64,000 bases of DNA from Gammaproteobacteria bacterium (GCA_965206325.1 OZ242208.1:1721557-1785556), one strand, 5' to 3'; counted from the stretch's first letter, positions 1-44,910 are shown. The notes: generated by a model not told the origin, from the letters alone. Numbers and translations: made by a program.

Positions 1-221
1 GCATTACAATTCCGAAAGCAACCAGCCACACCGATGCGCGCCGCCATTTCGCCAGCGGAATAAAAATCGCCATTGCGCCGAGTCCGAGTCCAACGGCGGC
101 GTTAAACATTTGGCGAATTAAATACTCCCCCCCCCCCCCCAAAGCGACGGTGGAGGAATAAACCATCAGGAGTCCGACCGCAAGAAGCGAGCCGCAGCAG
201 GCGAGAATGCAGCCGTCCATT
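1..221 (-). CDS. ftsW: FtsW (SEDS family) N-terminal part; gene runs off window; frame interrupted at a C14 tract (127-140)
   Basis: Minus-strand translation from ATG at 219-221 gives MDGCILACCGSLLAVGLLMVYSSTVALGGGG (FtsW-like TM1). After the tract the FtsW-like sequence (EYLIRQMFNAAVGLGLGAMAIFIPLAKWRRAS) continues in another frame. Position immediately downstream of murD fits dcw gene order. Confidence 0.5.
127..140. repeat. C14 homopolymer tract (frame-disrupting in ftsW)
   Basis: Direct count of 14 consecutive C on the + strand; FtsW-like translation changes frame across it. Confidence 0.9.
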
Positions 222-245
222 CGCGCGGCGACGGCGTCTTTCCAA

Positions 246-1667
246 TTAGACATTGGACTTTTCCATTTCGCGAACCGCTTGGCAAAAGGCATTTCCGCGC
301 GCGCGAAAATCGCTGAACATATCAATGCTGGCGCAGGCGGGCGACAGCAAAACACAATCGCCGGCCGCCGCGATTCCGGATGCGATTCGCACGGCGGCGG
401 ACATTCCGTCGGCGCGGCGGGTTGGAATTCCTTCGGCGGAAAATGCGGCGTCTAAGTTGTCGGCATCCTTTCCAATCAGCAAGGCGAGCCGCACTCGTCC
501 GCGCGCGGCTCTCGCCAGCGGATGAAAATTCTGACCTTTGGAGTCGCCGCCCGCGATAAGAACAATTTTTTCGCCGACGGCGGAAATGGCATAGCGGGCG
601 GCGGCGGCGTTGGTCGCTTTGGAATCGTCGCAATACATCACCCCCCTAATTTCGGCGACGCGATTCAAGCGATGCGGCAAACCTTTAAATTCGGCGAGGG
701 CGGAACGAATTGCGGATTCATCAATTGCCAGCGGCGAAGTCAAAGCGAGAGCGGCAAGCGCATTTTGCTTTGACAAAGCGGACGGCAATTCGTCGGCGGC
801 AAAGCCCCCTCCCCCCCCCCCTTTGCGAGCAAGATTGTTTTTCGCGTCAACAAACCAATCGCCGCGCATTGGCGAATCGCTCATAGTAAATCCGATTTCA
901 TTGGCGGAATTGGAATCCGCCATCGCCGCGACAAAAGCGTCATCGCGATTAATTACCGGCCATTTTGCGCCGCGATAAATAGACGCTTTGATTCGCGCGT
1001 AATTCGCGAGTCCGCCGTGACGGTCCAAATGATCTTCGCTCACATTGAGAACGACGGCGGCATCGGCATTAATGCGCGCGGCCGTTTCCAATTGAAAGCT
1101 TGACAATTCGGCGACGGCAATGTCGGGCATAACTTTGCGCTCTTCCCATTCGGCGAGCGCATCCAAAAGCGGACGGCCGATGTTGCCGATTGCCTCCGCC
1201 GATTTTCCGGCGGCGGCGCAAATGTTTGCGGCAAGCATTGTTACCGTGCTTTTGCCGTTGGTGCCGGTGACGGCGATTATAAAAGGACGGCGCGATTCAT
1301 CGCATTCCGACATCGTGCGGAAAAAGCATTCGGCGTCGCCGACGACAAAAATACCCCCCCCCCCCTTTCCGTTCAAGACGGGGGGGGGGGGGAGTTTGAG
1401 TTCATTCGGCGGCACGCCGGGGCTTGCGGCGACGATATTAAATTCACCCCGGCGCATCGCATCGCCGACTTCTTCCAAAGACATTTTCCGCCGCCTGACT
1501 TCGGGGAATTCCGCCGCGAATTCCTTTGCACACGGGGGTTCGGGGCGGCTGTCAATCGCTTCCACTATTCCTCCCCGCCGCCGCCAAAAGCGCGCGAGCG
1601 ACATGCCGGTGCGTCCCATTCCGACGACCAGAATCCTTTTGTCCGCGAATTGATTCATCGCTTTCAT
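246..1667 (-). CDS. murD: UDP-N-acetylmuramoylalanine--D-glutamate ligase
   Basis: 473 aa ORF with Mur ligase P-loop [10 protein letters not shown] and C-terminal [12 protein letters not shown] motif. Position in dcw cluster. Contains three in-frame homopolymer tracts giving GGGG/PPPP/GGGGGG. Confidence 0.9.
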
Positions 1668-2749
1668 CTAATCTTCAATGCGGAGAGTCCGATCAAAACC
1701 AAGATGATGGTAATTATCCAGAATCGCACGACGACTTGATTTTCGCGCCATCCTTTTAATTCAAAATGATGATGCAAAGGCGCCATTCGAAACATCCGCC
1801 GTCCGGTTAATTTGAAGGAGGCGACCTGCGCCATCACCGAAAGCGTCTCCACGACAAATACGCCGCTCATAATAAAGAAGACAATTTCCTGCCGAATAAT
1901 CACCGCAACCGCGCCAAGCGCCGCGCCCAATGCAAGCGAGCCAATGTCGCCCATAAACACTTCGGCGGGATAAGCGTTAAACCACAAGAAAGCGAGTCCG
2001 GCGCCGATAAAAGCCGCGCAAAATATCACTAATTCCTCCGCGCCGACGATGTGCGGAAATCCCAAGTATTCGGAAAATTCCGCATGTCCGGCGACATATG
2101 CAAACACCCCCAATCCGCCGCACACCATCACCGCCGGAAGAATGGCGAGACCGTCCAATCCGTCGGTAAGATTAACGGCGTTGGATGCGCCGACAATAAC
2201 AAAATAACCGACCGCCACAAAACCGAAAACGCCAAGCGGAATCGCGGCGTCTTTTAAGTAAGGAATAATTAATATAGTGCGCTCGCTGAGAGGAGTCGCC
2301 AAGACAAGCCACAGCAAAAACGCAATTGCCGCCGCGCTTTGCAGAATCAATTTGCGCTTGGCGCTTAATCCATGCGAACTGCCGCGCGCGATTTTGCGGG
2401 AATCGTCCCAATATCCGATGGCGGCGAAAGCGGCGACGGCAAACAGAAGCGGCCATAAATAATCGCTGCGCCAATCGCCCCACAGAAGAGTCGCCACCGC
2501 CAGCGACATTAAAATCAACCCCCCCCCCATCGTCGGCGTTTCTTTTTTCGATTGATGACTCTGCGGCCCGTCGTCGCGCACTTGCTGTCCGATGCGGCCG
2601 GCCTGCAGGCGGCGAATCAAACTCGGCCCGCAGACAAAGCCAATGGCGAGCGCGGTCAGCGTCGCAAATACGGCGCGCGAAGTTGTATAAGTGAACAGAT
2701 TGAATCCGCTCACATATTGCGTAAGATAATCGGCAAGATGAAACAGCAT
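1664..2749 (-). CDS. mraY: phospho-N-acetylmuramoyl-pentapeptide transferase
   Basis: 361 aa polytopic membrane protein with TPTMGG motif and dcw position; 4 nt overlap with murD. Confidence 0.9.
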
Positions 2750-4146
2750 TATTTATCCCCCCCCTCTTCTTCGAGGGCATGGATAATTCTTTCCATTTTC
2801 ATTCCGCGTGATCCTTTGACTAGAATCACCCCCCCTCCCCTCTTCGTCAAAGGGATAAGCGCGCGAATTAAAGTATCGGCATCGTCAAAATGCTTCGCGC
2901 CGGGGACGGCTTGAGTCGCATAACGACTCATTTCTCCCATCGCAAAAAAATGCTCGATATTAGCGGCGGCAACATCTTTGCCGAAAGCGCGATGCTCATC
3001 GGCGGACGCGCCGCCAAGCTCCAGCATATCGCCAAGGACAAAAATTCTCCGTCCGCTTTGCAAAGCCAATGCAGACAAGGCGGCGCGGGCGGAATCGGGA
3101 TTGGCGTTGTATGTGTCGTCAATTAATAAACAACCGCCGATTCCTTTTTTGAATTGAAGACGGCCGGGAACGCCGCGAAAATTTTCCAATCCCCGCTTAA
3201 TGTCGTCGCCGCTGATACCCAAAACATGCGCGGTCAATGCGGCGGCGGCGGCGTTTCGCAAGTTATGCTCCCCGGCGTCGGCAAGCCGCAAAGGCGGAAT
3301 GCCCCCCCCATCTTGGAAAACAAAAGCGACTTTATCATCGCTTGTTTTTTTCGCGCGACAATCAGCGTTGCTATTAATTCCAAAAGTTAAAACGCGGCGC
3401 GCATCGGCCATTTTTTTCCACATTGCCGAATGAGAATCATCGCCGTTTATCACCGCAATTCCATTCGGTGAAAGCGCGCCGATTATTTCGCCTTTCGCCC
3501 GCGCCACAAGATCGGCGGCGGAATCCCCCCCCCCCCCCTTCCCTTCAAAATTGGCGAGATGTCCGCGCTGGGCATTAGTGATAATGGCAATGGACGGACG
3601 CGCCAATGATGCCAATTTTGCAATTTCGCCCGCGCGATTCATTCCTAATTCAATCACCGCAAATTGATGATGCTTCCGCAATTTCAGCAGCGTCAGCGGC
3701 GCGCCGAGGCAATTATTAAAATTGCCTTCGGAAGAAAGCACCGAATCATTTCCGCAATGCGCGCGCAGAATTCCGGCAAGCATTTCCTTCACGGTGGTTT
3801 TGCCGTTGGTGCCGGTGACGGCGGCAAGCGGCAAATCGAATCGCGCGCGCCATGCGCCGGCGAGTCGGCCCAGTCCAATCATTGCGCCTTCAACAACGAC
3901 AATTTGCGCGAGCGATTTAATATCATTAGGCAAGGTCGCCGGACGCGACACCAGCGCCGCCGCCGCCCCCCGCCTTGCGGCATCGGCGACAAAATCGTGG
4001 CCATCGCAAACGCTTCCGGCAAGCGCGACAAACAATTCGCCCATGCGAATTTCGCGGCTGTCAATTTTGACTCCGGCAATTTTTCGCGCGCCGTCGCCGC
4101 GGCATTCTCCGCCGCACCATTGCGCCGCTTGAATCGCCGTCATCAT
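2749..4146 (-). CDS. murF: UDP-N-acetylmuramoyl-tripeptide--D-alanyl-D-alanine ligase
   Basis: 465 aa with Mur ligase motif [10 protein letters not shown] and dcw position. Confidence 0.9.
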
Positions 4147-5714
4147 CTTTTCTCCGCGTGCGCGGATTGCGCATTAGAAAAAGGGGGGGGAGGCATTTTT
4201 CGCCGCGCCTTAGGTAAATCGTTTCCGCTATATGTCCGCAGAATTTTGCGGGCGACGGCGGCATCGCTAAACGGAATTCGCGCGCCATTAATTTCCTGAT
4301 ATTCTTCGTGACCTTTGCCGGCGATTAAAACAGAATCGCCCGGGCGCGCGCTTTTAATGGCGGCGGCGATTGCTTCTTCGCGCGACGGAATCGCCTTCGC
4401 CTTATCGCCCGCGCCGACTAAAATATCGGCGATGATTTTATCCGGCGATTCGTTGCGCGGATTGTCCGATGTTATAAAAACGGAATCCGCCAAGGCCGCG
4501 GCGATTTCGCCCATCAAGGCGCGCTTGCCGGAATCGCGCTCGCCGCCGCAGCCGAAAACACAGATGATTCGCCCGCAGGATCCCCCCCCTCCCCCCTCTT
4601 TAATCGCCGACAATGCGGCGCGCAAAGCATCAGGAGTGTGGGCGTAATCCACAAAAACCAAAGGCGCGTTTTTTTCGCCGTCAATTCTTTCAAGCCGTCC
4701 GCGAGGAGGCGACAACGCCGACGCTATCTTTCCAATTCCATCCCACCCGCCTTGAACGGAAATTGAGTCATTCATCATCACGGCCGCCGAAGACGCCAAA
4801 AGATTAAGCGCATTATGCTTTCCCGGCATCGGCGTTTTCCAAATGAAGCGGCGCGAATCAACGGCGAATTCCATTTCGCCGCCGCCGCAATTCATTAAGT
4901 TAATATCCCCCCCCCCCCCTTTTCCAAAGGTCAAAATTCGGATGCGCTTTTTTTTCAGGCGCGACGCCAAGGCGATTCCATTTTCGTCGTCAACATTAAT
5001 AACGGCGGCGGAAAGTTTGGGCGAATCAAACAGCCGCTCCTTCGCCTGCAGATAGGCGGCGAAATCGCCGTGATAATCCAAATGGTCGCGCGAAATGCCG
5101 GTGAAGACGGCGACATCAATTTTAACGGCGTCCAGCCGACCTTGTGAAAGTCCGTGCGACGACGCTTCTATCGCCGCCGCCTTTGCGCCTTGTCGGCGAA
5201 AATGCGAAAGCGTTTTATGCAAAGCAACGGCGTCCGGAGTCGTCCGCTCGGCGGGGACGAGAAAGGAGGCAAATCCCGTCCCCACCGTGCCGACAAACCC
5301 GCAGGCGATTCTCAATTTCGTTAATAATTGGGCGGCGAAAAAAGCCGTCGTTGTTTTGCCGTTGGTGCCGGTGACGGCGACGACAAACATTTGGCGCGAC
5401 GGCGAATTGTAAAAGCAATCGGCGATTTCGCCGGAATGGCGGCGCAAGCCATTGACGGCGGCATTGGCGATTTTCCATTCGCGCCGCCAGCGAAAATTTT
5501 CGCGCTCCCACAGAATTGCCGATGCGCCTTTTTCAATCGCCTGCGGAATGAAATGGCGGCCGTCGGCGATTTCGCCCGGGCAGGCGAGAAAAATTTCGCC
5601 CCGCCGAATTTCGCGGCTGTCGCCGCAAAGTCCGGTCGCCGATACGCCGAGCGAATTAAGAATCGCGGACGAATTAAACGCCGTCATTTTTTTCTTCCGA
5701 ATATTTTTCCGCAT
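4143..5714 (-). CDS. murE: UDP-N-acetylmuramoyl-L-alanyl-D-glutamate--2,6-diaminopimelate ligase
   Basis: 523 aa with Mur ligase motif [12 protein letters not shown] and DNPR motif. The true start may be a few codons downstream (overlaps ftsI 3' end). Confidence 0.88.
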   Translation of the reverse strand: MRKNIRKKKMTAFNSSAILNSLGVSATGLCGDSREIRRGEIFLACPGEIADGRHFIPQAIEKGASAILWERENFRWRREWKIANAAVNGLRRHSGEIADCFYNSPSRQMFVVAVTGTNGKTTTAFFAAQLLTKLRIACGFVGTVGTGFASFLVPAERTTPDAVALHKTLSHFRRQGAKAAAIEASSHGLSQGRLDAVKIDVAVFTGISRDHLDYHGDFAAYLQAKERLFDSPKLSAAVINVDDENGIALASRLKKKRIRILTFGKGGGGDINLMNCGGGEMEFAVDSRRFIWKTPMPGKHNALNLLASSAAVMMNDSISVQGGWDGIGKIASALSPPRGRLERIDGEKNAPLVFVDYAHTPDALRAALSAIKEGGGGGSCGRIICVFGCGGERDSGKRALMGEIAAALADSVFITSDNPRNESPDKIIADILVGAGDKAKAIPSREEAIAAAIKSARPGDSVLIAGKGHEEYQEINGARIPFSDAAVARKILRTYSGNDLPKARRKMPPPPFSNAQSAHAEKR

Positions 5715-7365
5715 CCGGCGGGACGGCGTAAAGAATTAAGGCGCGCTCCATCACTTCGCGAAAAACCGGAGCGGCGACGATTCCGCCGTAGTAGCCGTTG
5801 CGAATCGGCTCATCAACAATGACGGCGACGATGAATCGGGGGCGAGTCGCCGGGGCGAATCCGACAAACACTGATTGATAGCGGCTGTGATTGTATTCGC
5901 CGTTTTCAATTTTAATTACCGTGCCGGTTTTGCCGCCGACGCGATAGCCCGGAATTTTTGCGCGCGGTGCGGTGCCGTCTTCGGTGATGACTCTTTCCAT
6001 CATCGTCCGCATTTTTTCGGCGGTTTCGGCGGAAATAACGCGTCGGCGAGTGCGGGCGGCTTCGCCTTTCACCAGCGAAACCGGCAGCAATTCGCCGTTG
6101 CCGAAAGCCGTATACGCTCTCGCTAATTGCAGCAAACTCATGGAAACGCCGTGGCCGTAGCCCAAAGTTGCGCGGTCGGCGGGATACCAGCCGCTGTGAT
6201 GGCGAAAAACCCCCGCCGCTTCGCCGGGGAATCCGCTGCCCGGCGATTCGCCAAATCCAAACGACCTCAGCCGCCGCCACAGAATCGACGGAATGATTTT
6301 CTCGGCGATTCGCACCGCGCCGACATTGCTGGATTTTTCAATTATTTCGGCGACGGTTAAATTTTCGTCAATGTTTTTATCGCGGACAATTAAACCGCCT
6401 TGAATCCAAATCGGCTTTTTGGTTTTAAGGACGGAATCCGCCGACAGAATTTTTTCATCCAGCGCGATGGCGGCGATAATCGGCTTCATCGCCGAGCCCG
6501 GCTCAAACACATCGGCCGCCGCCCGATTGCGCCTCGCCGCCGCCAAACTTTCGCCCAGATTGTTGGGATTGAATGAGGGATAATTCGCCATCGTCAAAAC
6601 TTCGCCGCTTTGCGCGTCCAAAACGACCACGCCGCCCGCCTTTGCGCCGTGCAATTTCACCGCCCGCGCGAGTGCGGCAAGAGCAAAATGCTGAATCCGC
6701 AAATCCAAAGTAAGCGATAAATCCCCGCCGTCCCGCGACGGCCGACGGTTGAATTCTTGAATTTCATCGCCGTCGGCGGTGCGAAAAACACGGCGCAGAC
6801 CGGGCTTGGGCGACAAATGCGGCTGGCGGGCGAATTCAAATCCTTCGCGGCCGCGGTCCAAATAATCGGTGAATCCAACGACATGCGCGGCGGCGTAGCC
6901 GCTCGGATAAAAGCGCCGGTCGCTGCGCTCCGCGCCCACGCCGGGAATTTTCAAGTCGTCGAGTTTGGCGACAATATCGGATGCCAAATATTTTCGCAGA
7001 TACACAAAGCGATTGCGGCGCGCGAGTTTTCGCCGAATGTCGTCGGCGGAAATTTCCAGTGTTTGAGCGAGCCGTGCAATTGCTTCGTCGGCGTTTTCCA
7101 ATTCGCGGAAAACTTCGGGATTCGCGTAGACCGAATAAGTCGGCGCGCTAATCGCCAGCAGGTCGCCGTTGCGGTCGACAATCGCCCCGCGAATCGCCGG
7201 AATCGGAATAACGCGGACATATATTTTATTGGATTCGCCGCGCAAATCGTCGCGCTGTCCCAAGGCGCGATAAGCCCCGCCGGCGAGCATCGCGCCGAAC
7301 ATCAGCAAAATCACCGCCAGAGTCGTCAGCGAGCGGCCGGGGGCGATTCGCATTGCCCTCGTCAC
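5674..7365 (-). CDS. ftsI: peptidoglycan D,D-transpeptidase FtsI (PBP3)
   Basis: 563 aa with N-terminal TM segment and SxxK (PGSAMKP), SSN (KSSNVG) and KTG (GKTGT) motifs. Confidence 0.9.
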   Translation of the reverse strand: MTRAMRIAPGRSLTTLAVILLMFGAMLAGGAYRALGQRDDLRGESNKIYVRVIPIPAIRGAIVDRNGDLLAISAPTYSVYANPEVFRELENADEAIARLAQTLEISADDIRRKLARRNRFVYLRKYLASDIVAKLDDLKIPGVGAERSDRRFYPSGYAAAHVVGFTDYLDRGREGFEFARQPHLSPKPGLRRVFRTADGDEIQEFNRRPSRDGGDLSLTLDLRIQHFALAALARAVKLHGAKAGGVVVLDAQSGEVLTMANYPSFNPNNLGESLAAARRNRAAADVFEPGSAMKPIIAAIALDEKILSADSVLKTKKPIWIQGGLIVRDKNIDENLTVAEIIEKSSNVGAVRIAEKIIPSILWRRLRSFGFGESPGSGFPGEAAGVFRHHSGWYPADRATLGYGHGVSMSLLQLARAYTAFGNGELLPVSLVKGEAARTRRRVISAETAEKMRTMMERVITEDGTAPRAKIPGYRVGGKTGTVIKIENGEYNHSRYQSVFVGFAPATRPRFIVAVIVDEPIRNGYYGGIVAAPVFREVMERALILYAVPPDAEKYSEEKNDGV

Positions 7366-9041: not shown

Positions 9042-9110
9042 TATTTGCTGTCCTTTTTCCGATATTACCACAAAATTTCCCGATTTTCCATAATTTTCCA
9101 ATTTTTTTTC
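9042..9110 (-). promoter_or_regulatory. AT-rich Pmra-type promoter region upstream of mraZ
   Basis: Minus-strand sequence contains TTTTGTGGTAATATC (extended -10 like) then AAGGACAG RBS 8 nt before the mraZ ATG. Confidence 0.3.
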
Positions 9111-9219
9111 TAAAAATAACAACAGGCGAATTTGCATCAAATTGCTAATCAGCGGCGAATTCGGCGGCGAATGGGGGTATAATTCCCCCATGGAACGCGA
9201 GGGCAACCGGAGACGAAAA

Positions 9220-9876: not shown

Positions 9877-9879
9877 CGA

Positions 9880-30111: not shown

Positions 30112-30186
30112 GGGTCAGTAGCTCAGCGGTTAGAGCAAGGGACTCATAATCCCTCGGCCGCAGGTTCGAATCCTGCCTGACCCACC
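30112..30186 (+). tRNA. tRNA-Met (anticodon CAT); elongator-Met/Ile2-like D-loop
   Basis: Cloverleaf folds: acceptor GGGTCAG/CTGACCC, D-arm GCTCAGCGGTTAGAGC, anticodon stem AGGGA/TCCCT with CTCATAA loop, T-arm GCAGGTTCGAATCCTGC. Confidence 0.85.
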
Positions 30187-30796: not shown

Positions 30797-31606
30797 TTAT
30801 TGTCCGCGCTGCGATTGGATGGCGCGATTAATAATTTTTCCGGCAAGGCGTGGAAATGCAAAATATAAAAACAACAGTCCGCGCAACTTAAAAGGAATAA
30901 TTAATTCGCGGTCGCGCCGCCGAATTGCGCGCAGAATTGCCTCGGCGCAAAGCGTTAAATCCACCGATTCGCGGCTATGCCGGCGGGCGCTTTCGCCAAG
31001 CATTTCGCCCTTTGCATCAAGGGCATTCTCTCTGAGCATTGTCCCGCGAATCCAATGCGGCAGGACTGTTAAAACGCCGACTCCGTCCGCCGACACTTCT
31101 TCCCGCAAAGACGCGCAAAATCCCTCCACTGCATGCTTGGATGCCGCATATCCCGTATGCAAAGGCACGCCGATGCGTCCTTGTATGGATGAAATTGCCG
31201 CCAGCATTCCGCGCCTTTCCTTCAAATACGGCAGCGCCGCCAGCGCGCAATTGCATAAGCCGAAAAAATTAACATCCATCAAGCGGCGAAAAACATCGGA
31301 CGATTCTATTTGGTCAAAGCGCGCCCACATGCTGATTCCGGCGGCGACGACGACGCAATCAATTCCGCCGAAGTGCGCCGCCGCAGATTTCATTAAGCGG
31401 CGGCAGTCGTCTTCTTTGCCAACATCGCCGACGACGACCAGCGGCTCGCCTTTGCATTTGGATGCGGCAATGCGCAATCGCGATTCGTTGCGCGCGAATA
31501 AAATGACCCCCCCCCCCTGTTCGGAAAAAGCGCGCGCCAATTCCGCGCCGAGTCCGGAAGACGCGCCGGCAACAACAATTGCTTTGCCGTCAAATGCTTT
31601 TTTCAT
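30797..31606 (-). CDS. SDR family oxidoreductase
   Basis: Track ORF trimmed to ATG at 31604-31606 (MKKAFDGKAIVVAGASSGLG). Upstream part is antisense to the oxidase gene. Confidence 0.8.
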   Translation of the reverse strand: MKKAFDGKAIVVAGASSGLGAELARAFSEQGGGVILFARNESRLRIAASKCKGEPLVVVGDVGKEDDCRRLMKSAAAHFGGIDCVVVAAGISMWARFDQIESSDVFRRLMDVNFFGLCNCALAALPYLKERRGMLAAISSIQGRIGVPLHTGYAASKHAVEGFCASLREEVSADGVGVLTVLPHWIRGTMLRENALDAKGEMLGESARRHSRESVDLTLCAEAILRAIRRRDRELIIPFKLRGLLFLYFAFPRLAGKIINRAIQSQRGQ

Positions 31607-33375
31607 CGCGGCCGAAGACGCCGTTAGATGCGGCAAAAATATCGCGCGGATCCAGCGATTTTTTCGCTTCGCGCAATGCCGCCGCCGCCGCCGGAGAATG
31701 CGCCCGCAAAATGAATTCGCGCCGCACCTTGCCAATGCCATGATGATGCGACAAGGATCCTCCTTTGGATAAAATAACTTCGCGCAATTTTCGTTCAATG
31801 GCGCCGTAAGTTTCTTCGGGATGCGCCAGTCCGCGCGCGCAGAATCCCATTGTAAAATAAATGCATGCCCCCCCATGATAAGTTTGGGTAACACGGTGGG
31901 AAAGATAAGGACGGCCGGCCACTCCGCGCTTGGCGCATTCTTCGGCGAGCGCATCCGCAACGCCTTCGCAAATGCCCATAATGCAGGTCCACGGCGCGGA
32001 AGTTTCAAAGGTTTCGCCGATGATGTTCAAGCGGCTGAAAAAATCGCGAATGTAGGCAATGGCGAAAGTGAGCATATAGCCCCGTCGGCCATTGGCTTCG
32101 CCGCCGCTTACGCCGCCGCAGCGGCGGGCGATTTTCAGCGCCGTCCGGCGGCGGCGAGCCGCCTCCCCCCCCCCCCCCCTCCGTCACCAAAGTGCATGCG
32201 ACCATTTGCGACGGATTAAATTTCATCACGCGCAAAAGAAAAAATTTCTGCATCGCGGATATAATTCCGCCCCCCCCCCCCCTCTTCGGCTTTAATGCCT
32301 GACCAAAGCGAAATTCGCGGTTATCAACAAGGCGAATGCTTTCCGGCAAGGCATCGGCCTTTCTAAGTTCGCGCAGAAAATTGATGCCGTCGGCGAATGT
32401 CGGAAAAACCGCCGATCCGTATTTTCGCTCGCGCGGCAGCGGATGAATTTTAATGACCGCCTTAGTGACGACTCCCAAGCATCCTTCGCTGCCAAACAAT
32501 AAAGCGCGCGGCTGCACGCCGGCGGAAGTGCGGGGCGAATCCGGCGGCGATGATTCCACCGCGCCTTTGGGGGTGATTAATGTCGCCGACAAAACGATAT
32601 CTTCTATGTTGCCGTAGCGGTTTTTTTTCATGCCGCTGGCGTTTGTTGCAATCCAACCTCCTAATGATGAGAATTCAACGCTGTCGGGTTCGTGTCCGCA
32701 GATAAATCCGCGGGCGGAAAGTTCGCGCTCTAAGTCTTTGCCGCGAATGCCGGCTTCGGCGCAGGCGAGCATATTGTCTTCGTCCACCCACAGCAGGCGA
32801 TTCATTTCGCGCAGGTCCAAAGAAACAATCATTCGCTTTTCATTTTTCGGACACAGCAGCGCACCGCTTACATTAGTGCCGCCGCCGAAGGGAATCAAGC
32901 AGACATTTTCGGCGTCGGCAAGGGCGACAATCGCTTCTGCATCGTCTTCGCCGCGCGGAAAAAAAATCATATCGGGAATTCGCGGCGGAATTTTTCCGCG
33001 CGACAAGCGGTAAATTTCGCCGACGCTTAATTGTCCGTGACTGCGAATGAGCCGCTCGCCATCGTCAAAGGAAATTTGCCCGGGACGAAAGCGCGATTGA
33101 ATTTCGCGGACGAAATTATCATTGAGAATCGGCGGCGGCGGAGTCGGCAGGGGGGATTCTTCCTCCAATTCTTTCGGAGTGACGGCAACGCCGAGCATTT
33201 CCTCCACAAACGGAATAAAGCCCGGCAGATTTTTTCCGGCGAGGGCGTATCGCCCTCCCCGCATAATGACGGCGCGGCCTTCAAATTCAAAGCCGGTGTC
33301 GGCGTATCCCCATTTGTGCGGATGCCGCGGACCGTCGGAATCGTCGTAGCAGGAATCAAGCGGCGGATTCGGCAT
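31590..33375 (-). pseudogene. FAD-linked oxidase (alkyldihydroxyacetonephosphate synthase / GlcD-like) split by a frameshift at a C16 tract
   Basis: N-terminal part (32005-33375: HKWGYADTGFEF..., FAD-binding PCMH domain) and C-terminal part (31590-32075: ...SLSHHHGIGKVRREF) lie in different frames. The junction is at homopolymer 32165-32180. A second tract (32270-32282) is in-frame (GGGGG). Confidence 0.6.
32165..32180. repeat. C16 homopolymer tract (frame-disrupting)
   Basis: Direct count; oxidase homology switches frame here. Confidence 0.85.
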
Positions 33376-37543: not shown

Positions 37544-37635
37544 AAAAGCATTTTTCGCAAAGGCCGGCGGACTGAGGGTTTTGTCATTCTCCTTTCTCCA
37601 TCCGCCGACCGGAGCGAAAACGGCGGCGGGTCGGC

Positions 37636-37869
37636 ATGAGCGAAACGGCTTATTTTTACGGCTCAACGCTGCTGCTGGCCGCTCTTTTATATGTGCCGGT
37701 GCAGCGAATGATTTGGACACTTTCTGTGCGGCGTCTGCAGCGCAAACTCAAGCGGGAATTGTCCGCCGAAGAAATTCGGGGGCAGTCGCGTCGCGCGCAT
37801 TTCATCGCTATTTTAGTCACGCCGATTTTTTCCCTGCTGTTTAATTTGGGGCTGCACAAGCCGCAATGA
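37636..37869 (+). CDS. small membrane protein (77 aa, two TM)
   Basis: Hydrophobic segments; stop overlaps the TPR gene start (ATGA). Confidence 0.35.
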   Translation: MSETAYFYGSTLLLAALLYVPVQRMIWTLSVRRLQRKLKRELSAEEIRGQSRRAHFIAILVTPIFSLLFNLGLHKPQ

Positions 37870-38450
37870 GCGGAAATCCATCCTATCGCTTTTTGCTGTT
37901 TGCCGCCGTCGCGCTGGGATTCGGCTACGCGGCTTGGGCTTTCTACGACGGCTTTGCCCTGCTGAAAGCGAATCCGGCCGAAGCCGAATACCGCCGCGCC
38001 GCCCGCGATTTTAAGGACGAAGAATACGCACTCGCCCTCGCCGCCTACGAGCGCGCCTTGTCGGCAAATCCCGACTTCGCCTCCGCCCGACTCGGCCGCG
38101 CCGAATCGCTTTTAATGCTGGGGCGTCTGGAAGAATCGCTGGCGGATTTCAATCGCGCCATTCAATTAAATCCCGAATCCGCCGTCGCCTTCGCCAATCG
38201 CGGAAACGCATTGGATAGAATGGGACGGCACGAAGAAGCCCTCGCCGACTACGAGCGCGCCCTGCAAATGGATTCCGCACTCGCCGACGGACCGGGATGG
38301 CTCACGCGATTTTTTCGCAATCAGCCGGACAAGCCGCCAACCATCGCCGACCGCGCCCGCTATCTGCGCGCTCAATTGGAACTTCCCGCCGACGAAAGAA
38401 TTCTGCAAAAACCGGAAGAGGACGCCAAGCAGCGACCCTACGAATATTAA
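37866..38450 (+). CDS. TPR-repeat protein with N-terminal TM anchor
   Basis: Three or more TPR units (AYERALSANPDFASARLGRAESLLMLGRLEESLADFNRAIQLNP...). Confidence 0.7.
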   Translation: MSGNPSYRFLLFAAVALGFGYAAWAFYDGFALLKANPAEAEYRRAARDFKDEEYALALAAYERALSANPDFASARLGRAESLLMLGRLEESLADFNRAIQLNPESAVAFANRGNALDRMGRHEEALADYERALQMDSALADGPGWLTRFFRNQPDKPPTIADRARYLRAQLELPADERILQKPEEDAKQRPYEY

Positions 38451-39089
38451 ATGAATTCCGCCGACCGCCGAAAAATCTTTGAGCGGCTGCGCGCCGCCAA
38501 TCCCAAACCGACAACGGAATTGCGCTACCGCAATTCCTACCAATTGCTGGTGGCGGTTACTTTGTCCGCGCAGGCGACCGATAAAAGCGTCAATGCGGCG
38601 ACGCTGCCGCTTTTCGCCCGCGTCAAAACGCCCGCCGATATGCTGCGATTCGGCGAGGAAAAATTAAGGGAAAGCGTCCGTACGATTGGGCTTTTTCGGA
38701 CGAAGGCGAAAAATATCGTCGCGGCGGCGAAGATTCTTTTGGAAAAGCACGGCGGCGAAATTCCGCGCGACCGCGAATCGCTGGAATCGCTGCCCGGCGT
38801 CGGCCGCAAAACGGCGAATGTCATTCTCAACACCGCCTTCGGCGAGCCGACCATTGCGGTGGATACGCATATTTTTCGCTTGGCGAATCGCACCGGCATC
38901 GCGCCGGGAAAAAATCCGCGCGAAGTGGAATCGCATTTAGTGAAAGTCGTCCCCGCCGAATTCGCCCGCGACGCCCATCATTGGCTGATTCTGCACGGAC
39001 GCTACATTTGCCAGTCGCGCAAGCCGAAGTGCGCTATTTGCCGCATCGCCGACCTGTGCGAATATCCCGAAAAAACATCGGCGGAATAA
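38451..39089 (+). CDS. nth: endonuclease III
   Basis: HhH-GPD (LPGVGRKTANVIL) and 4Fe-4S CxxxxxxCxxC...C C-terminus. Confidence 0.9.
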   Translation: MNSADRRKIFERLRAANPKPTTELRYRNSYQLLVAVTLSAQATDKSVNAATLPLFARVKTPADMLRFGEEKLRESVRTIGLFRTKAKNIVAAAKILLEKHGGEIPRDRESLESLPGVGRKTANVILNTAFGEPTIAVDTHIFRLANRTGIAPGKNPREVESHLVKVVPAEFARDAHHWLILHGRYICQSRKPKCAICRIADLCEYPEKTSAE

Positions 39090-39177
39090 AACGAAAATGA
39101 ATCTCCGCCTTGAAAGTTTCGCCTTAAAATCAATTGACTTGCGCGAATTTACTTCAGACGACAAGACGACGCCAGAT

Positions 39178-39828
39178 TCAATCCCGAAAAAATTGGCGGG
39201 AAAGAGGCGACAGCGAATCGTCCAATTCATAAACCAGCGGAATGCCGGTGGGGATTTCAAAATGCGGAATGTCGTCGTCCGAAATGCCGTCCAGCCGCTT
39301 GACCAACGCCCGCAACGAATTGCCATGCGCGGAAATTATCACTTGTCCGCCCATTCGCAATTGGGGGGCGATTCGCTCGTCCCAGCATTCCGCCACCCGC
39401 TTCAGCGTGTCTTTGAGCGATTCGGCGGCGGGCGTGGAATTTTCCAGCGGCGGCGGGGCGATATCAAAACTGCGCCGCCAAATTCGCACTTGCTCATCGC
39501 CGAATTCACGCGCGATTTCCTGCTTATTTTTGCCTTGCAGGATGCCGTAGTGACGCTCGTTGAGACGCCAATCGGCTTCGGTCGGCGGCGACAGATTCAT
39601 TTCCGCCATCGCCAATTCCAGAGTCCGAATCGCCCTTTTCAAGCGGGAAGTGAAAGCGAAATCAAAAGCGAATCCGCGCGATTTCAGAATTCGTCCGGCT
39701 TGCTGCGCTTCTTTTTCGCCCTGCGGCGACAGACCGACATCAACCCAGCCGGTAAAAAGATTTTGCCGATTCCATTCGCTTTCGCCGTGCCGCAAAAGCG
39801 CGAGCGTTTTGCCGGATGAAGTCGGCAA
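39178..39828 (-). CDS. gpmA: 2,3-bisphosphoglycerate-dependent phosphoglycerate mutase
   Basis: LLRHGESEWNRQNLFTGWVDV histidine-phosphatase motif. Confidence 0.85.
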   Translation of the reverse strand: MPTSSGKTLALLRHGESEWNRQNLFTGWVDVGLSPQGEKEAQQAGRILKSRGFAFDFAFTSRLKRAIRTLELAMAEMNLSPPTEADWRLNERHYGILQGKNKQEIAREFGDEQVRIWRRSFDIAPPPLENSTPAAESLKDTLKRVAECWDERIAPQLRMGGQVIISAHGNSLRALVKRLDGISDDDIPHFEIPTGIPLVYELDDSLSPLSRQFFRD

Positions 39829-39830
39829 AA

Positions 39831-40739
39831 TTAAGCGGCGAGACGATGGGCGACCAATCCGCGAATTTTTTCCATCGCCCGCTTTTCAATCTGCCGCACA
39901 CGCTCGGCGGAAACGCCTAATTCGTCGGCGAGATTGTGCAGCGTTTTGCCGCCGGATTCGCCCAGCCATCGCGCGCGAATGATTTTGCGGCTGCGCTCGT
40001 CCAGAGAATCCATCGCTTCGGCGAGGGCTTCGCGGGCGGCGGTTTTTTCGTGCGATTCCATTAAAATCTGCTCGGCGTCGCGTCCTTCTTCCGACTGCAA
40101 ATACTGCAGCGGATTCAGCGGGGCGTTTTCTTCCGATTCGCCGACGGCGGCATCAAACGGAATTTCGCCTTTCATCCGCCGATGCATTTCAAAAACTTCG
40201 GCGGTCTTAACGCCCAATTCGCGGGCGATTCGCGATGCCTCCCGCTTGTCCAAATAATCGCCGCTGTATGAGGTCGAATCGTCCGACGGCTGCGACGAGC
40301 CCATCATTCGCCGCAAATTAAAGAATAATTTGCGCTGCGCTTTGGTCGTCGCAATTTTAACGATGCGCCAATTGCGAATGACGAATTCGTGAATCTCCGC
40401 CTTAATCCAATAGACGGCGAAAGTCGCCAAGCGCGCGCCCCGCTCCGGATCAAACCGCTTAACCGCCTTCATCAGCCCGATGTTGCCCTCCTGAATCAAA
40501 TCCGCCTGCGGAAGCCCGTATCCGTCGTAGCCGCGGGCGACGGCGGCAACCAGCCGCAAATGCGGCATAATCAATTGACGGGCGGCGGCAAGGTCGTTAT
40601 CGCGGCGGTAGGCCAAGGCGAGTCGCCGCTCTTCCTCTGCGGACAGCATCGGCACGCGGCGCACCGTCCGAAGATATTCGGCAATTCCGCCGATGGCGGC
40701 GGGAATCATCGGCTGCTGTTTGGCGGCGAGGGCTGTCAT
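39831..40739 (-). CDS. rpoH: RNA polymerase sigma-32
   Basis: RpoH box QRKLFFNLR and sigma-70 regions 2-4. Confidence 0.9.
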   Translation of the reverse strand: MTALAAKQQPMIPAAIGGIAEYLRTVRRVPMLSAEEERRLALAYRRDNDLAAARQLIMPHLRLVAAVARGYDGYGLPQADLIQEGNIGLMKAVKRFDPERGARLATFAVYWIKAEIHEFVIRNWRIVKIATTKAQRKLFFNLRRMMGSSQPSDDSTSYSGDYLDKREASRIARELGVKTAEVFEMHRRMKGEIPFDAAVGESEENAPLNPLQYLQSEEGRDAEQILMESHEKTAAREALAEAMDSLDERSRKIIRARWLGESGGKTLHNLADELGVSAERVRQIEKRAMEKIRGLVAHRLAA

Positions 40740-40922
40740 TGCGGTTTTCGTTTTCGGTGAATATTATACACGATGCCAAGAAAAAAAAGTCCTTTTTTTT
40801 CGGATGATGTTTGTATTTTTGTCACATTTTTCATCATTAGACCAACGCAGACCATCAGGACGAAGATTCTGCTTTTTGGGGAACAGTCGGGGCGGAGCAC
40901 CCGCACCCCGCATTTTGATTTT

Positions 40923-41741
40923 TTAATCTTGGGATTTTGAATCGCTTCGGCGGAAACGCAACCGCAAACGACGCATCATCCCGCGCAAAAAAAGCGCATA
41001 GCCGGAGCCGAAATACAACAGCGACATCGCCAGAAAAATCACAGGCAAATTATCCGACGCCGCTCCAATCACCGCCACCGCCAGCAGCACCAAAGCGACT
41101 CGCCGAAACGGAATGCGGCTCTTCAAATCCACATCCTTAAAACTGTGATACTTGACGCCGCTGACCATCGTAATGCCGACCACCATGGTCAGCAGCCATG
41201 CCGCCGCCGCCCAGCCGCCGGAAACGGCGTTAATGTCGGATTCCGCCGCCGTCCAGACGAAAGCGGCGACGACCGCCGCTCCGCACGGACTCGGCAGACC
41301 GGAAAAAAACCGCTTGTCGGCGCCGGCTAATTCCACATTAAATCGCGCCAATCGCACGGCGACGGCGGCGCAATAAACAAACGCCGCCGCCCAGCCGAGT
41401 TTTCCCAATCCGACCAGCGACCACTGATAAATCAACAGCGCCGGCGCCACGCCGAAAGCAATGACATCCGACAGCGAATCGTATTCCGCCCCGAAAACGC
41501 TCTGCGTGTTGGTGTAGCGGGCGACCCGTCCATCGCAGGCGTCAAACAGCATCGCAAAATAAATCGCCGCCGCCGCGCGCGGATAATCGCCGTTGACGGT
41601 TTGAATCACCGCGTAAAATCCGCTGAATAAAGCGGCGGTCGTGAATAAATGCGGCAGCAGATAAATCCCCCGGCGCGGCCAGATTCGCCGCTTGGATTTC
41701 ATTCCGGCGGAATCATTTTCGGAATTATTTCGCTCCGTCAT
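40923..41741 (-). CDS. pssA: CDP-diacylglycerol--serine O-phosphatidyltransferase
   Basis: CDP-alcohol phosphatidyltransferase motif DACDGRVAR...G...D...D. Confidence 0.85.
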   Translation of the reverse strand: MTERNNSENDSAGMKSKRRIWPRRGIYLLPHLFTTAALFSGFYAVIQTVNGDYPRAAAAIYFAMLFDACDGRVARYTNTQSVFGAEYDSLSDVIAFGVAPALLIYQWSLVGLGKLGWAAAFVYCAAVAVRLARFNVELAGADKRFFSGLPSPCGAAVVAAFVWTAAESDINAVSGGWAAAAWLLTMVVGITMVSGVKYHSFKDVDLKSRIPFRRVALVLLAVAVIGAASDNLPVIFLAMSLLYFGSGYALFLRGMMRRLRLRFRRSDSKSQD

Positions 41742-41744
41742 TTT

Positions 41745-42374
41745 TTAATTGCCGCCAAAGCGGGCGATGATGGTTTCGCCGCCGCAAACTTTTTCGCCGA
41801 CCGCCACCGCCGCCGCCGCCGCCGTCGGCAGATAAACATCCACCCGCGAGCCGAAGCGAATGAATCCGTAAGGATTCCCCAGCTGCACCGCATCATCTTT
41901 TTTAACATAGCACAAAATTCGCCGCGCGATAAATCCCGCCACCTGCACGCAAGTGACGCCGCCGTTGACGCCGTCAATCCGAATCGCCCGCCGCTCGTTT
42001 TCCGCCGACGATTTGTCCAAAGCGGCGTTGAAAAATTTGCCGGGATGATAATCGTCCGCCGTCACCCGCCCGCTAATCGGGGCGCGATTTACATGGACAT
42101 TAAACGGACTCATAAAAATGGAAATTTTCAGCGACGGCGAATTCGCGCACGGGTCGGGCGATTCGCCGACAAAAACCACCCGTCCGTCGGCGGGGGCGAC
42201 GGCGATGGAATCATCGTCGGCGGGCGGGCGGCGAACCGGGTCGCGGAAAAATTGGACGACGAAAATCACCGCCGCCCACATCGGCAAAGACCACCAGCCC
42301 GCTGTTATCGTCAGCAGAATCGCCAGTGCGAGCGCAGCGGCGAGATGCCAAATTCCTTCGCGGGCAAATTTCAT
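41745..42374 (-). CDS. psd: phosphatidylserine decarboxylase (short Psd-related form)
   Basis: 209 aa, FMSPFNVHVNRAPISG and LGS-type cleavage region; adjacent to pssA. Confidence 0.8.
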   Translation of the reverse strand: MKFAREGIWHLAAALALAILLTITAGWWSLPMWAAVIFVVQFFRDPVRRPPADDDSIAVAPADGRVVFVGESPDPCANSPSLKISIFMSPFNVHVNRAPISGRVTADDYHPGKFFNAALDKSSAENERRAIRIDGVNGGVTCVQVAGFIARRILCYVKKDDAVQLGNPYGFIRFGSRVDVYLPTAAAAAVAVGEKVCGGETIIARFGGN

Positions 42375-42482
42375 TTTGGGATTTTAATGTAATTTTCCCC
42401 TGCGCGGGTCGACGGCTGCAGAATCAATCTGCGGAAAAAAGCGCAAAGCCGAATCAAACGGCGTAGAATTCGTCGGCACATT

Positions 42483-43457
42483 ATGGCGAATTCTCTTGCG
42501 AAAAGCCGCCGCCTGTGCGCGGCGCCGATGATGCGCTTTTCGCATCGTCACGCCCGCTATTTCTGGCGGACGCTTAGCCGCGCAAGTTTGCTCTACACCG
42601 AAATGCTTACCGCCGACGCGGTTTTGCGCGGCGAAAAAAATCGCCTGCTTGCCTTTGATTCGGCGGAAAAACCGCTAGCTTTGCAGTTGGCAGGCGCCGA
42701 CCCCGCCAAACTCGCCAACGCCGCCAAAATCGGCGAAGAATGGGGATACGACGAAATTAATCTCAACGCCGGCTGTCCGAGTCCGCGCGTCCGCCGGGGC
42801 GAATTCGGCGCATGCTTGATGGCGCGTCCGCAATTAGTCGGCGAATGCGTAGCGGCGATGCAGTCGGCGACGCGGCTGCCCGTCACCGTCAAATGCCGAA
42901 TCGCCATCGACGAAATGGATTCTGAATCCTGCCTTAATAATTTCGCCAAAGCGGTTTGGGAATCCGGCGGCGACGCTTTGATTGTGCATGCCCGAAGGGC
43001 TTGGCTCGGCGGATTAAATCCGCGCGAAAATCGCAGCAAGCCGCCGCTGGATTACGCGCGCGTTTATCAATTGAAGCGCGATTTTCCCAAACTCGCCATT
43101 ATCATTAATGGGGGAATTGACGACGCCTATTCGGCGCGATTGCATTTGGAAAAAGTCGACGGCGCAATGCTCGGCCGGGCGGCGGCATATCGCCCTTATG
43201 CATTCGCGCAAATTGCCGGCGGGATTTACGGCGATCCCCCCCCCCCCCGAACTGATGCAATCGCAAAAATGCTGGAGTATTGCGCGCGGCGAATCGCCGA
43301 AGAATCGGCGGCCAATTGGCGGCGGATTCTGTCGCCGCTGTGGGGGCTTTATCACGGCGAGCCGCATGCGCGGATTTTTCGCCGCGCGCTCGCGAATGCG
43401 GCGGAATTCAAAGGCGCCTTTGCCGCACTGTCCGCCGCCGGATTTCGCGCGCGATGA
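42483..43457 (+). CDS. dusA: tRNA-dihydrouridine synthase A
   Basis: Dus TIM-barrel motifs (EINLNAGCPS, VKCRI). Confidence 0.85.
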   Translation: MANSLAKSRRLCAAPMMRFSHRHARYFWRTLSRASLLYTEMLTADAVLRGEKNRLLAFDSAEKPLALQLAGADPAKLANAAKIGEEWGYDEINLNAGCPSPRVRRGEFGACLMARPQLVGECVAAMQSATRLPVTVKCRIAIDEMDSESCLNNFAKAVWESGGDALIVHARRAWLGGLNPRENRSKPPLDYARVYQLKRDFPKLAIIINGGIDDAYSARLHLEKVDGAMLGRAAAYRPYAFAQIAGGIYGDPPPPRTDAIAKMLEYCARRIAEESAANWRRILSPLWGLYHGEPHARIFRRALANAAEFKGAFAALSAAGFRAR

Positions 43458-44317
43458 CGCCGTTCATTGCGAACCGCTTATCCGCTTATCTGCGGCTGGC
43501 CAGATTCAACAGTCCGGCGGGCGCGCTTTTTTTATTGTGGCCGACCTTGTGGGGATTGTGGCTCGCCTCCCAAGGAGCCCCCCCCCCCCCCCTTGTTTTT
43601 ATTTTTATCGCCGGTGTTTTTAGCATGCGCGCCTTCGGCTGCGCGATAAACGACATCGCCGACCGCCGCTTTGATTCGCGCGTCGCCCGCACCCGTCTGC
43701 GTCCTTTGGCGTCGGGGGAAATTAATGCCGCAGAAGCAATCGGCGTCGCCGTATTTTTTCTTGCCATCGCTTTTTTGCTTTGGCTGCAATTGAATGCCGC
43801 CGCGCGATTATGGGCTTTCGCCGCATTATTCCTCGCCGTCACTTATCCATTCGCCAAGCGAATCATTGCGATGCCGCAGGCGTATTTGGGAATCGCATTC
43901 GGCTTTGGAATTCCAATGGCCTACGCCGCCGCCCAAAATGAAATTCCAACGGAAGCATGGGCTTTGGTCTTGGGAAATGCATTATGGACAATCGCCTACG
44001 ACACCGTCTATGCAATGAGCGACCGCAGCGACGACTTAAAAATCGGCGTTAATAGTTCGGCGATATTATTCGGCAGGCGCGATGTTCTTGCAGTGGCGTC
44101 TTTTTTATGCGCGATGCTGATATGGATGGCGATGCTGGGAATCGCACTTAACCTTGGCATTCTTTATCAATTGTCTTTGCTCTTCGCCGCCGCCTTGGCG
44201 ATTGACTGCCACCGCCGCATTCGCGGGCGCGACCCCGCAAAATGCCTCGCCGCTTTTCGCATTAATCATTGGATGGGCGCGATTATTTTCGTCGGCGTTG
44301 TTTTTGCCGAGCGATGA
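43454..44317 (+). CDS. ubiA: 4-hydroxybenzoate octaprenyltransferase
   Basis: Trimmed to MTPFIANRLSAYLRLARF; UbiA motif NDIADRRFD; 4 nt overlap with dusA. Confidence 0.85.
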   Translation: MTPFIANRLSAYLRLARFNSPAGALFLLWPTLWGLWLASQGAPPPPLVFIFIAGVFSMRAFGCAINDIADRRFDSRVARTRLRPLASGEINAAEAIGVAVFFLAIAFLLWLQLNAAARLWAFAALFLAVTYPFAKRIIAMPQAYLGIAFGFGIPMAYAAAQNEIPTEAWALVLGNALWTIAYDTVYAMSDRSDDLKIGVNSSAILFGRRDVLAVASFLCAMLIWMAMLGIALNLGILYQLSLLFAAALAIDCHRRIRGRDPAKCLAAFRINHWMGAIIFVGVVFAER

Positions 44318-44910
44318 CCCCCCCCCCCCCCCCTCATGCGAAAAATGAAATCATCGCCGTTGACGGCGACGGCTTTGCATCTTCGGCGCAATTTATTAAG
44401 TCGCCCAATTGCGATTCGCGGCCGGATGATTCCGCCGTTGAATTAATTGTGCTGCATGGCATTTCTTTGCCGCCCGGCGAATTCATCGGCGATGCGGTGG
44501 AGCGGCTGTTTTTGAATTCGCTGGATTGCGAATCGCATCCGTATTATGCAAAGTTGCGCGGCTTGCGGGTATCTTCGCATTTTTTCATTCGCCGGGGGGG
44601 GGGGGTAATTCAGTTTGTATCTTGTAATTTGCGGGCGTGGCATGCCGGCGAATCGCAATGGCGCGGACGCGGACGCTGCAACGACTTTTCCGTCGGCGTG
44701 GAAATTGAAGGGGCGGAAGCGAAATCGCCGACGGCTATGCAGTATCAAAAACTTACCGCTCTTATCCGCGGCTTAATAATGCAGTATCCGATAAAAGGAA
44801 TCGCCGGCCATTGCGACATCGCGCCCGGACGCAAAGATGATCCTGCGGATTCCTTTAATTGGAAAATGCTTTTTGCCGCCGTCGGCGAACAATATGACGG
44901 CCGCGCTTAA
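44314..44910 (+). CDS. ampD: 1,6-anhydro-N-acetylmuramyl-L-alanine amidase
   Basis: CDSRPDD, HGISLPPGEF, AWHAGES, GHCDIAPGRKDDP align with E. coli AmpD. ATGA overlap with ubiA. C16 tract directly after the start. Confidence 0.8.
   Translation: MTPPPPPHAKNEIIAVDGDGFASSAQFIKSPNCDSRPDDSAVELIVLHGISLPPGEFIGDAVERLFLNSLDCESHPYYAKLRGLRVSSHFFIRRGGGVIQFVSCNLRAWHAGESQWRGRGRCNDFSVGVEIEGAEAKSPTAMQYQKLTALIRGLIMQYPIKGIAGHCDIAPGRKDDPADSFNWKMLFAAVGEQYDGRA

Follow-up and report, generated by a model that had tools for sequence, protein, structure and literature searches.

Clustered long C/G homopolymer tracts, probably inherited and filtered by selection, in essential and housekeeping genes of an uncultured bacterial species

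Homopolymers of the lengths treated here are the classical substrate of phase variation (PMC3401435, PMC4965091). In the genome of Campylobacter jejuni NCTC11168, 29 loci of this kind are known; their modal length is 9, they belong to surface, modification and restriction genes, and they vary in length between isolates (PMC3401435, PMC4965091). Another set of cases is that of the conserved frameshifts found in the endosymbionts Buchnera and Blochmannia and in tssM of Citrobacter, which lie in A/T runs of very A+T-rich genomes and for which the heterogeneity of the mRNA was shown experimentally (PMC3017870, PMC4256274, PMC5009743). Here, we examine the long C/G homopolymer tracts carried by a stretch of 64,000 nucleotides (nt) of a Gammaproteobacteria bacterium (GCA_965206325.1 OZ242208.1:1721557-1785556), which we will call the window. 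It belongs to an uncultured species with a genome of about 1.95-1.99 Mb and 56% G+C, whose closest named relatives are beta- and gammaproteobacteria. The reading that we favor, with a probability of roughly 0.6, is that these tracts are real, inherited and lineage-specific homopolymers of a single species, filtered by selection, and that they would have originated by slippage or dislocation. This species appears to carry dozens of G/C runs of 10-20 nt, conserved between strains, in its essential and housekeeping genes.

Scanning the window directly for C/G runs of 7 nt or more gives 22 of them. Read on the + strand, 19 are of C and 3 of G, and all lie in four intervals amounting to about 7.8 kb: 127-4919, 23836-24600, 31507-32282 and 43236-44605. 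The same scan finds no such run in the window at 5-23.8 kb, 33-43 kb or 45-64 kb. The 15 runs of at least 10 nt and the 11 of at least 12 nt that are observed compare with 0.11 and 0.007, respectively, expected analytically under a first-order Markov model of the window. The distribution of run lengths is bimodal, with a geometric decay up to about 8 nt and a second mode at 10-16 nt. A/T runs in the window show no excess (none of at least 10 nt, for 1.9 expected). The reading frame of the host gene is compatible with 21 of the 22 runs, and the exception is the C15 run at 32165-32179, in the gene of an FAD-linked oxidase. An earlier note on this DNA, made from the sequence alone, had described long C/G tracts in four clusters, absent from 5-23, 33-43 and 45-64 kb, and the scan confirms the clusters as well as the gaps. 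Its list of tracts was mostly right, except that the C12 run of murD lies at 1354-1365 instead of 1364-1375, that the G run of the same gene is a G13 at 1380-1392 instead of a G12 at 1381-1392, and that the run at 32165 is a C15 and not a C16. Its gene names agree with the NCBIfam and Pfam matches and its peptides, including FGKGGGGDINL in MurE, with our translations, while its count of at least 17 of 20 tracts in frame was slightly conservative.

Codon preference was considered as the cause of the tracts and rejected. Indeed, outside the tracts GGG represents 12% of the Gly codons and CCC 19.5% of the Pro codons, so that codon choice does not account for the runs. The genes of the - strand carry mostly Gly runs, and those of the + strand (dusA, ubiA and ampD) mostly Pro runs. 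The bias is 19:3 when counted by DNA strand and 17:5 when counted by coding sense. As its fit to the DNA strand is no worse than its fit to the sense, the bias points to an origin at the level of the DNA, followed by a filter at the level of the protein.

Are these tracts found in other strains? Exact look-ups of three proteins of the window (MurD and the products of the ORFs at 44935-45621 and 47263-47913) gave no match, and the related strains were reached by homology. Searching for homologs of MurD gave a single cluster of 17 proteins that are 98-100% identical, of which 16 were aligned; most of the 17 are encoded on single contigs of 1.95-1.99 Mb in ENA, and one is also in NCBI. We compared the window with seven further contigs of the same species, from two ENA samples, of which four are megabase-scale and three are marked circular. 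L081 comes from sample ERZ25069315 (contig_1), and sample ERZ25069326 provided L082, L091 and L092, marked circular (97x, 107x and 34x; 1.95-1.99 Mb), as well as L083 and L090, which are low-coverage fragments (9x and 5x) of further strains. This one sample holds three circular-marked contigs plus fragments, from strains about 1-2% apart; likewise, five strain contigs of a sister lineage co-occur in another sample. Outside the tracts, a divergence of 0.8-1.8% separates the contigs from the window and from one another, most of it due to evenly spread transitions, so that they represent distinct strains. The tracts of the window that are covered, i.e., those of the dcw (division and cell wall) cluster and those of the third and fourth clusters, are all present at the same positions in every covering contig. 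The differences inside the tracts are mostly single G<->A interruptions (read on the G strand) that track the strain haplotypes. In MurD, for instance, AAC GGA AAG GGG GGG GGG GGT (NGKGGGG) is opposed to AAT GAA AAG GGA GAG GGG GAT (NEKGEGD), and each form is common to a subset of the 16 MurD proteins, from different samples and with linked single-nucleotide polymorphisms (SNPs) in the flanks. The earlier note had asked whether such tracts occur in related genomes, and seven further conspecific contigs have them.

The two nearest sister lineages give the complementary picture. These lineages (L084-L089), which are still distant since their MraY is 68-69% identical to that of the window, have zero C/G runs of at least 8 nt over 21 kb of the same gene cluster, and they share the ENA accession series and the contig naming style of the tract-bearing species. 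For the same genes, G+C is 56% in the tract-bearing species versus 66% and 61% in the sister lineages, and an A+T-ward shift on the tract-bearing branch is suggested; the genomes of the sister lineages are of similar size (about 1.96-1.98 Mb). A scan of species-representative genomes with MraY found only relatives at 64% identity or less. Judging from the contig names, the contigs were probably made with metaMDBG, in which the bases of the contigs are taken from the reads and polishing is done by partial-order consensus (PMC11392814). From these comparisons of long-read assemblies of one ENA accession series, we conclude that the tracts are most probably present in the DNA of the species and are not an artefact.

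The tracts of the window are the following, with the strand of the host gene.

127..140, - strand: ftsW, C14 (sense G14), at about codons 38-42, LGGGGE; G14 in 5/5 strains.
805..821, - strand: murD, C5-T-C11, residues 283-288, KGGGGGGF, 3 residues longer in the window than in the nearest relatives; uninterrupted G16 in L081 and L083, G17 (frameshift) in L092.
1354..1365, - strand: murD, C12, residues 102-105, GGGG, of the same length as in orthologs, the final G being a conserved Gly; the other haplotype is GGGAGAGGGGGA (KGEGD).
1380..1392, - strand: murD, G13 (sense C13), residues 93-96, PPPP, inside a species-specific insertion of 6 residues relative to GTDB orthologs and 11 relative to the nearest relatives.
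2519..2528, - strand: mraY, C10, in the conserved TPTMGG(A/G) motif, ATG GGG GGG GGG, without indel; the G-G is invariant across 80 orthologs.
2757..2764, - strand: murF, C8, in the C-terminal tail, EEGGDK; +1 nt in L092.
2829..2840, - strand: murF, C7-T-C4, residues 447-449, RGGGV, in a variable loop; constant length, with an interruption whose position varies by strain.
3302..3309, - strand: murF, C8, residues 289-291, DGGGI, on a native Gly.
3525..3538, - strand: murF, C14, residues 212-217, KGGGGD, in a loop 8 residues longer than that of orthologs; in L081, G19 plus an extra A, which splits murF.
4183..4190, - strand: murE, G8 (PPP), in the non-conserved C-terminal tail; the local segment has 24, 26 or 27 nt depending on the strain.
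4582..4596, - strand: murE, C8-T-C6, residues 383-387, EGGGGGS, in a length-variable loop; unbroken G15 in the other four strains.
4907..4919, - strand: murE, C13, residues 273-277, KGGGGD, in a variable loop.
23836..23842, - strand: AapM-like amino-acid ATP-binding cassette (ABC) permease (23093-24166), C7.
24591..24600, - strand: AapQ-like amino-acid ABC permease (24163-25329), C10, peptide GGGV.
31507..31517, - strand: short-chain dehydrogenase (about 30797-31603), C11, QGGGV; identical in three strains.
31868..31874, - strand: C-terminal half of the FAD-linked oxidase, C7, in the frame of the open reading frame (ORF) 31590-32183.
32165..32179, - strand: FAD-linked oxidase, C15 (sense G15), the frameshift site.
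32270..32282, - strand: FAD-linked oxidase, C13, RGGGG, in frame.
43236..43248, + strand: dusA, C13, DPPPPR, in a loop that natively contains Pro; in L090 and L091 a T>C change makes it C14, the total length being the same.
43578..43592, + strand: ubiA (43454-44317), C15, GAPPPPL, near the N-terminus.
44318..44333, + strand: ampD, C16, codons 2-7, TPPPPP, in a segment that extends the N-terminus beyond that of the solved AmpD structure 1J3G; C18 in L090 and C7-T-C8 in L091.
44594..44605, + strand: ampD, G12, RRGGGVIQ versus RRDGEIVQ in the solved AmpD, a substitution that keeps the length.

The ATG of ampD (44314) overlaps the stop codon of ubiA (ATGA, 44314-44317) and the C16 run starts at the following base; a change in the length of this run would uncouple ampD from its start codon. 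In L090, which has C18, the gene caller chose another start for ampD, upstream.

The variation of the tracts between strains is mainly a matter of substitutions. The pairwise divergence is 3.7-7.3% inside the tracts versus 0.8-1.7% outside, which is about what is expected for unconstrained sites. The total length is identical in 7/12 tract regions of the dcw cluster (five strains) and in 7/8 tracts of clusters 3 and 4 (three strains). Almost all the indels between assemblies fall at tracts, where the majority put a mur gene out of frame in a single assembly. Six tract sites vary in length. Three are tolerant, being located in the murE tail (4183), at the C-terminus of murF (2757) and just after the start of ampD (44318), and the other three each disrupt a gene, murF or murD, in a single assembly: the 3525 run splits murF in L081, the 3302 run splits it in the 9x contig L083, and in L092 the murD run is G17 instead of G16, which gives a product of 315 residues, a situation found in 6/17 members of the MurD cluster and on both haplotype backgrounds. 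Beyond the window, the runs of murG and of the murC-murB spacer are also variable in length, and murG is split in L082. The events that break genes affect mostly the longest runs without interruption, from G16 to G19, or the 9x contig, and the +/-1 alleles may be either real slippage variants or homopolymer consensus errors.

We aligned the proteins of the window with 67-80 orthologs from species-representative genomes, and also with solved structures and the nearest metagenomic relatives. In these alignments, the tracts occupy variable loops, termini, or residues that are natively Gly or Pro. Some are length-neutral replacements (TPTMGG(A/G) in MraY, RRDGEIVQ to RRGGGVIQ in AmpD, xxRG to GGGG in MurD), and others bring 3-11 inserted residues (in MurD 6 or 11 at PPPP and 3 at the G6 run, in MurF 8). 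Thus, to the question of whether the tracts are insertions or substitutions, which the earlier note had left to an ortholog comparison, the alignments answer that both occur. Judging from these alignments, selection plainly appears to keep the tracts in frame and in tolerant loops. The earlier note had proposed selection on genuine hypermutable tracts; they do look genuine, in frame and placed in tolerant loops, but hypermutability in the sense of phase variation would be at most putative, given the constant total length of most tracts and the dominance of substitutions.

Two observations concern MurD. The sense C13 and G12 runs of murD (1354-1392) are 14 nt apart and are predicted to form an RNA stem of 12 G:C pairs, with a minimum free energy of -37 kcal/mol versus -27 +/- 3.3 for shuffled sequences; this hairpin is inside the species-specific insertion of an essential gene. 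Besides, around residues 293-300 (window about 770-800), SALSKQ replaces the near-invariant G-x-H-N that precedes NALAALA. A corruption of MurD close to a tract was considered and rejected, as the nearest tract-free relatives (P0002-P0010) also lack the motif, and its loss looks like a trait of the MurD subfamily of the wider lineage, unrelated to the tracts.

The first block of tracts continues past the start of the window in L081, L082 and L092, through ftsW, murG, the murC-murB spacer, murB and ddl. It extends from murE to ddl with sharp ends at ftsI and ftsQ; beyond these ends, no tracts are found in mraZ, rsmH, ftsL and ftsI on one side or in ftsQ, ftsA, ftsZ and lpxC on the other. The longest run is the C20 of the murC-murB spacer (L081 13378-13397), which is C15-T-C5 in L082 and L092, and a G15 run is found in murB about 250 nt downstream of the C20 of L081. 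Peptidoglycan genes are over-represented among the tract-bearing genes, including ampD, which is located separately; since the mur genes are contiguous, this enrichment does not count as independent evidence. A search for a motif shared by the flanks of the tracts brought out nothing beyond a richness in A/T within about 10 nt. An insertion signature in these flanks was rejected, the A/T richness being explained by adjacent Ile, Leu, Lys and Asn codons. A faster evolution of the tract genes, through relaxed selection or a transfer of murE-ddl, was likewise rejected from the identity ratios relative to the two sister lineages, which range from 0.97 to 1.16 in the genes with tracts and from 1.07 to 1.15 in those without.

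The FAD-linked oxidase is the only gene of the window whose frame is broken by a tract. The Pfam domain FAD-oxidase_C is matched over positions 1-53 in one frame and 74-244 in another, with the break exactly at the G15 run (32165-32179), and reading the three frames shows that G14 or G17 would join the two. The window, L090 and L091, the three strains compared here, share this G15. Among the variable codons of these strains, the ratio of synonymous to nonsynonymous is 21:3 upstream of the run and, in the shifted frame, 6:0 downstream of it; these are small numbers, and no stop codon is found in either part in the three strains, shifted frame included. The counts indicate purifying selection on both halves, with only 6 variable codons downstream. 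A conserved G15 frameshift together with purifying selection on both halves suggests that the oxidase is rescued by slippage, and the poly(A) conserved frameshifts of endosymbionts that are rescued by slippage carry the same signature (PMC3017870; review PMC5009743). A consistent one-base miscall at the G15 run is the alternative.

Apart from the tracts, the window contains a single tRNA gene (30112-30184, + strand), which is its sole Rfam match. It also encodes a 502-residue protein made largely of ankyrin repeats (19107-20615, + strand) and a 2038-residue ORF without Pfam match (57808-63924, - strand). These two hint at a host-associated or intracellular lifestyle, and the genome of about 2 Mb is a further hint in that direction.

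How could such tracts have formed in real, inherited DNA? They probably arose on the long branch of the lineage itself, before the divergence of the present strains, through events at the DNA level, as the strand bias indicates. The runs would have grown by replication slippage combined with substitutions by transient misalignment ("dislocation") at their ends. Dislocation substitution can extend a run at constant total length, and the process would accelerate beyond about 8 nt. Such growth would fit a lineage with a small genome, probably host-associated, with weakened repair. Purifying selection has then probably acted as a filter, the survivors being in frame and located in variable loops, at termini or at native Gly/Pro positions. 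At present, the change is probably in the main decay or interruption by G:C>A:T substitutions at about the rate of unconstrained sites, and +/-1 length changes would be purged from essential genes but allowed to persist in tails and spacers. As for the oxidase, its full-length form would depend on transcriptional or translational slippage at G15.

Several observations weigh against this account. Forming the runs from typical ancestral codons requires transversions that simple slippage does not predict, such as GAC GGC GAA to GGG GGG GGG in ampD. Slippage and dislocation leave unexplained the 1-10 kb blocks (murE-ddl, short-chain dehydrogenase to FAD-linked oxidase, dusA-ampD) and the gaps between them, as well as the specificity for G:C with A:T runs unaffected, and the proposed origin explains neither the strand coordination nor the stability of the longest runs. 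Indeed, perfect G13-G15 runs of the same length across strains that are 1-2% divergent are surprising if slippage is frequent. Finally, the assemblies found for the species all belong to a single ENA accession series, with one of them in NCBI too.

Among the other explanations, the one that survives best, though we hold it to be unlikely, is that the tracts are used: slippage of the RNA polymerase or of the ribosome would serve to control expression or to recode, the in-frame state would just be the one with the highest yield of product, and the oxidase would be a recoded gene. Its support comes from the oxidase, with its conserved G15, its 21:3 and 6:0 counts and its stop-free shifted frame, from the peptidoglycan enrichment (murE, murF, mraY, murD, ftsW, murG, murB, ddl and ampD), and from the precedents in endosymbionts and in Citrobacter tssM (PMC3017870, PMC4256274, review PMC5009743). 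However, the 6 variable codons downstream of the shift are few, the enrichment is confounded by the one contiguous block of genes, and the one-base miscall mentioned above would account for the oxidase as well. Moreover, the known cases of transcriptional slippage are at A/T runs, while G/C runs form stable hybrids and slip poorly. In a broader and quite unlikely version, the lineage would tolerate or exploit long G:C runs since its expression machinery slips, the frame being a soft constraint of which the oxidase is the visible case, and/or the tracts would record an undescribed process that writes G runs strand by strand and region by region.

That the tracts are contingency loci, i.e., hypermutable on/off switches of +/-1 nt kept because switching is useful, seems doubtful to us. 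Their length is that of the classical substrate (PMC3401435, PMC4965091), frameshifted alleles are found exactly at tracts (murD in 6/17 proteins and in L092 with G17, murF in L081 and L083, murG in L082), and the ampD tract adjoins the start codon and varies between C16, C18 and C7-T-C8. Yet the length is the same in every compared strain at most tracts, and the frameshifts are mostly in G16 to G19 or in the 9x contig, where the long-read consensus is least reliable. The targets (murD, murE, murF, mraY, ftsW) are essential, so that the OFF state is lethal, and they are not surface, restriction-modification or host-interaction genes; in addition, interruptions that stabilize the runs segregate freely. 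The conservation of tract length across strains at most sites speaks against classical phase variation, and this conservation, the housekeeping targets and the segregating interruptions together make a poor fit to classical contingency loci.

It is improbable, too, that the tracts are the scars of an episodic, strand-coordinated and regional process instead of gradual slippage, for example an untemplated addition of G or an error-prone patch synthesis on exposed single-stranded DNA, as in mutation showers (kataegis). Such a process would account for the gathering of 22 tracts in about 7.8 kb of 64 kb with the sharp ends of the murE-ddl block, for the 19 C versus 3 G on the + strand, for a distinct mode of 10-16 nt without a smooth tail and for the insertions of 3-11 residues in several tracts. 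But no enzyme or mobile element is tied to the clusters within the window, the flanks share no motif except A/T richness, the strand bias is confounded with gene orientation, and the many length-neutral tracts are not given by insertion alone. The weakest explanation, and a very improbable one, is that sequencing or assembly produced the tracts (through dark-cycle poly-G, miscalled homopolymers, a polisher that overwrites bases with C/G or, as the earlier note had put it, a consensus artefact that writes whole codons): the single long-read accession series, the absence of any Illumina-derived contig of the species among the protein search matches and the near-confinement of inter-assembly indels to tracts would fit it, but the same sites recur in seven further contigs of two naming styles (contig_1 and ctgN_Nx_c/l) and of different strains, their interruptions are consistent with haplotypes and linked to flanking SNPs, sister lineages of the same series and naming style are without runs despite a higher G+C, the tracts keep the frame, avoid conserved residues and lie inside genes away from contig ends, and metaMDBG, if it is indeed the assembler as the names imply, uses read-derived bases and a partial-order consensus that cannot invent runs (PMC11392814).

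If the tracts are indeed real, G:C runs of 10-20 nt are kept in indispensable genes, and far more densely than in known phase-variable genomes. A heavy mutational burden would be expected from the published slippage rates of much shorter runs, so that one of three things should hold: replication copes with G runs unusually well, the damage is buffered by slippage at the stage of expression, or many cells die. This species would then offer a natural system for the birth and decay of homopolymers, for recoding at G/C runs and for the limits of long-read consensus. So far, most of the documented recoding at homopolymers concerns A/T runs. In practice, because gene callers split essential genes at the tracts, completeness and pseudogene counts would be wrong for such genomes.

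Our literature searches found no description of a genome with such a pattern, and three known phenomena come close to it. Like the contingency loci of C. jejuni, Helicobacter, Neisseria, Haemophilus and Bordetella, these tracts are G:C homopolymers of at least 7-8 nt in ORFs or after start codons (22 runs, 21 of them in frame), far above chance frequency, with A:T runs not expanded and with indels at the tract. In contrast to the loci of C. jejuni, 22 are found in 64 kb, with lengths of 10-16 nt (up to 20 in other strains) that are mostly constant across strains, and their variation consists mainly of base substitutions. Instead of dispensable surface or restriction genes, they are carried by essential housekeeping enzymes and their neighbors (mur genes, mraY, ftsW, dusA, ubiA, ampD, permeases and oxidoreductases). 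Long-read homopolymer errors also resemble what is seen here, as the +/-1 differences are almost only at runs, mostly at G16 to G19, and split essential genes. Such errors alter the length of an existing run; they cannot create the runs, their placement in loops or interruptions that follow haplotypes, and here most runs are of equal length in all assemblies, are reproduced in seven further contigs from two samples, and have no counterpart of at least 8 nt in L084-L089. With the poly(A) frameshifts of Buchnera and Blochmannia and with Citrobacter tssM, the oxidase shares a conserved frameshift retained in a long homopolymer and, on small numbers, constraint on both of its halves, and the species shares with the endosymbionts a small genome and hints of host association. 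The difference is that its run is a G15, poly(G) in the sense strand and not poly(A) or poly(T), in a genome of 56% G+C, and that it is known from DNA alone. Thus, the tracts are close to both contingency loci and slippage-rescued endosymbiont frameshifts yet fit neither family, since gene class and length stability set them apart from the former and base composition from the latter.

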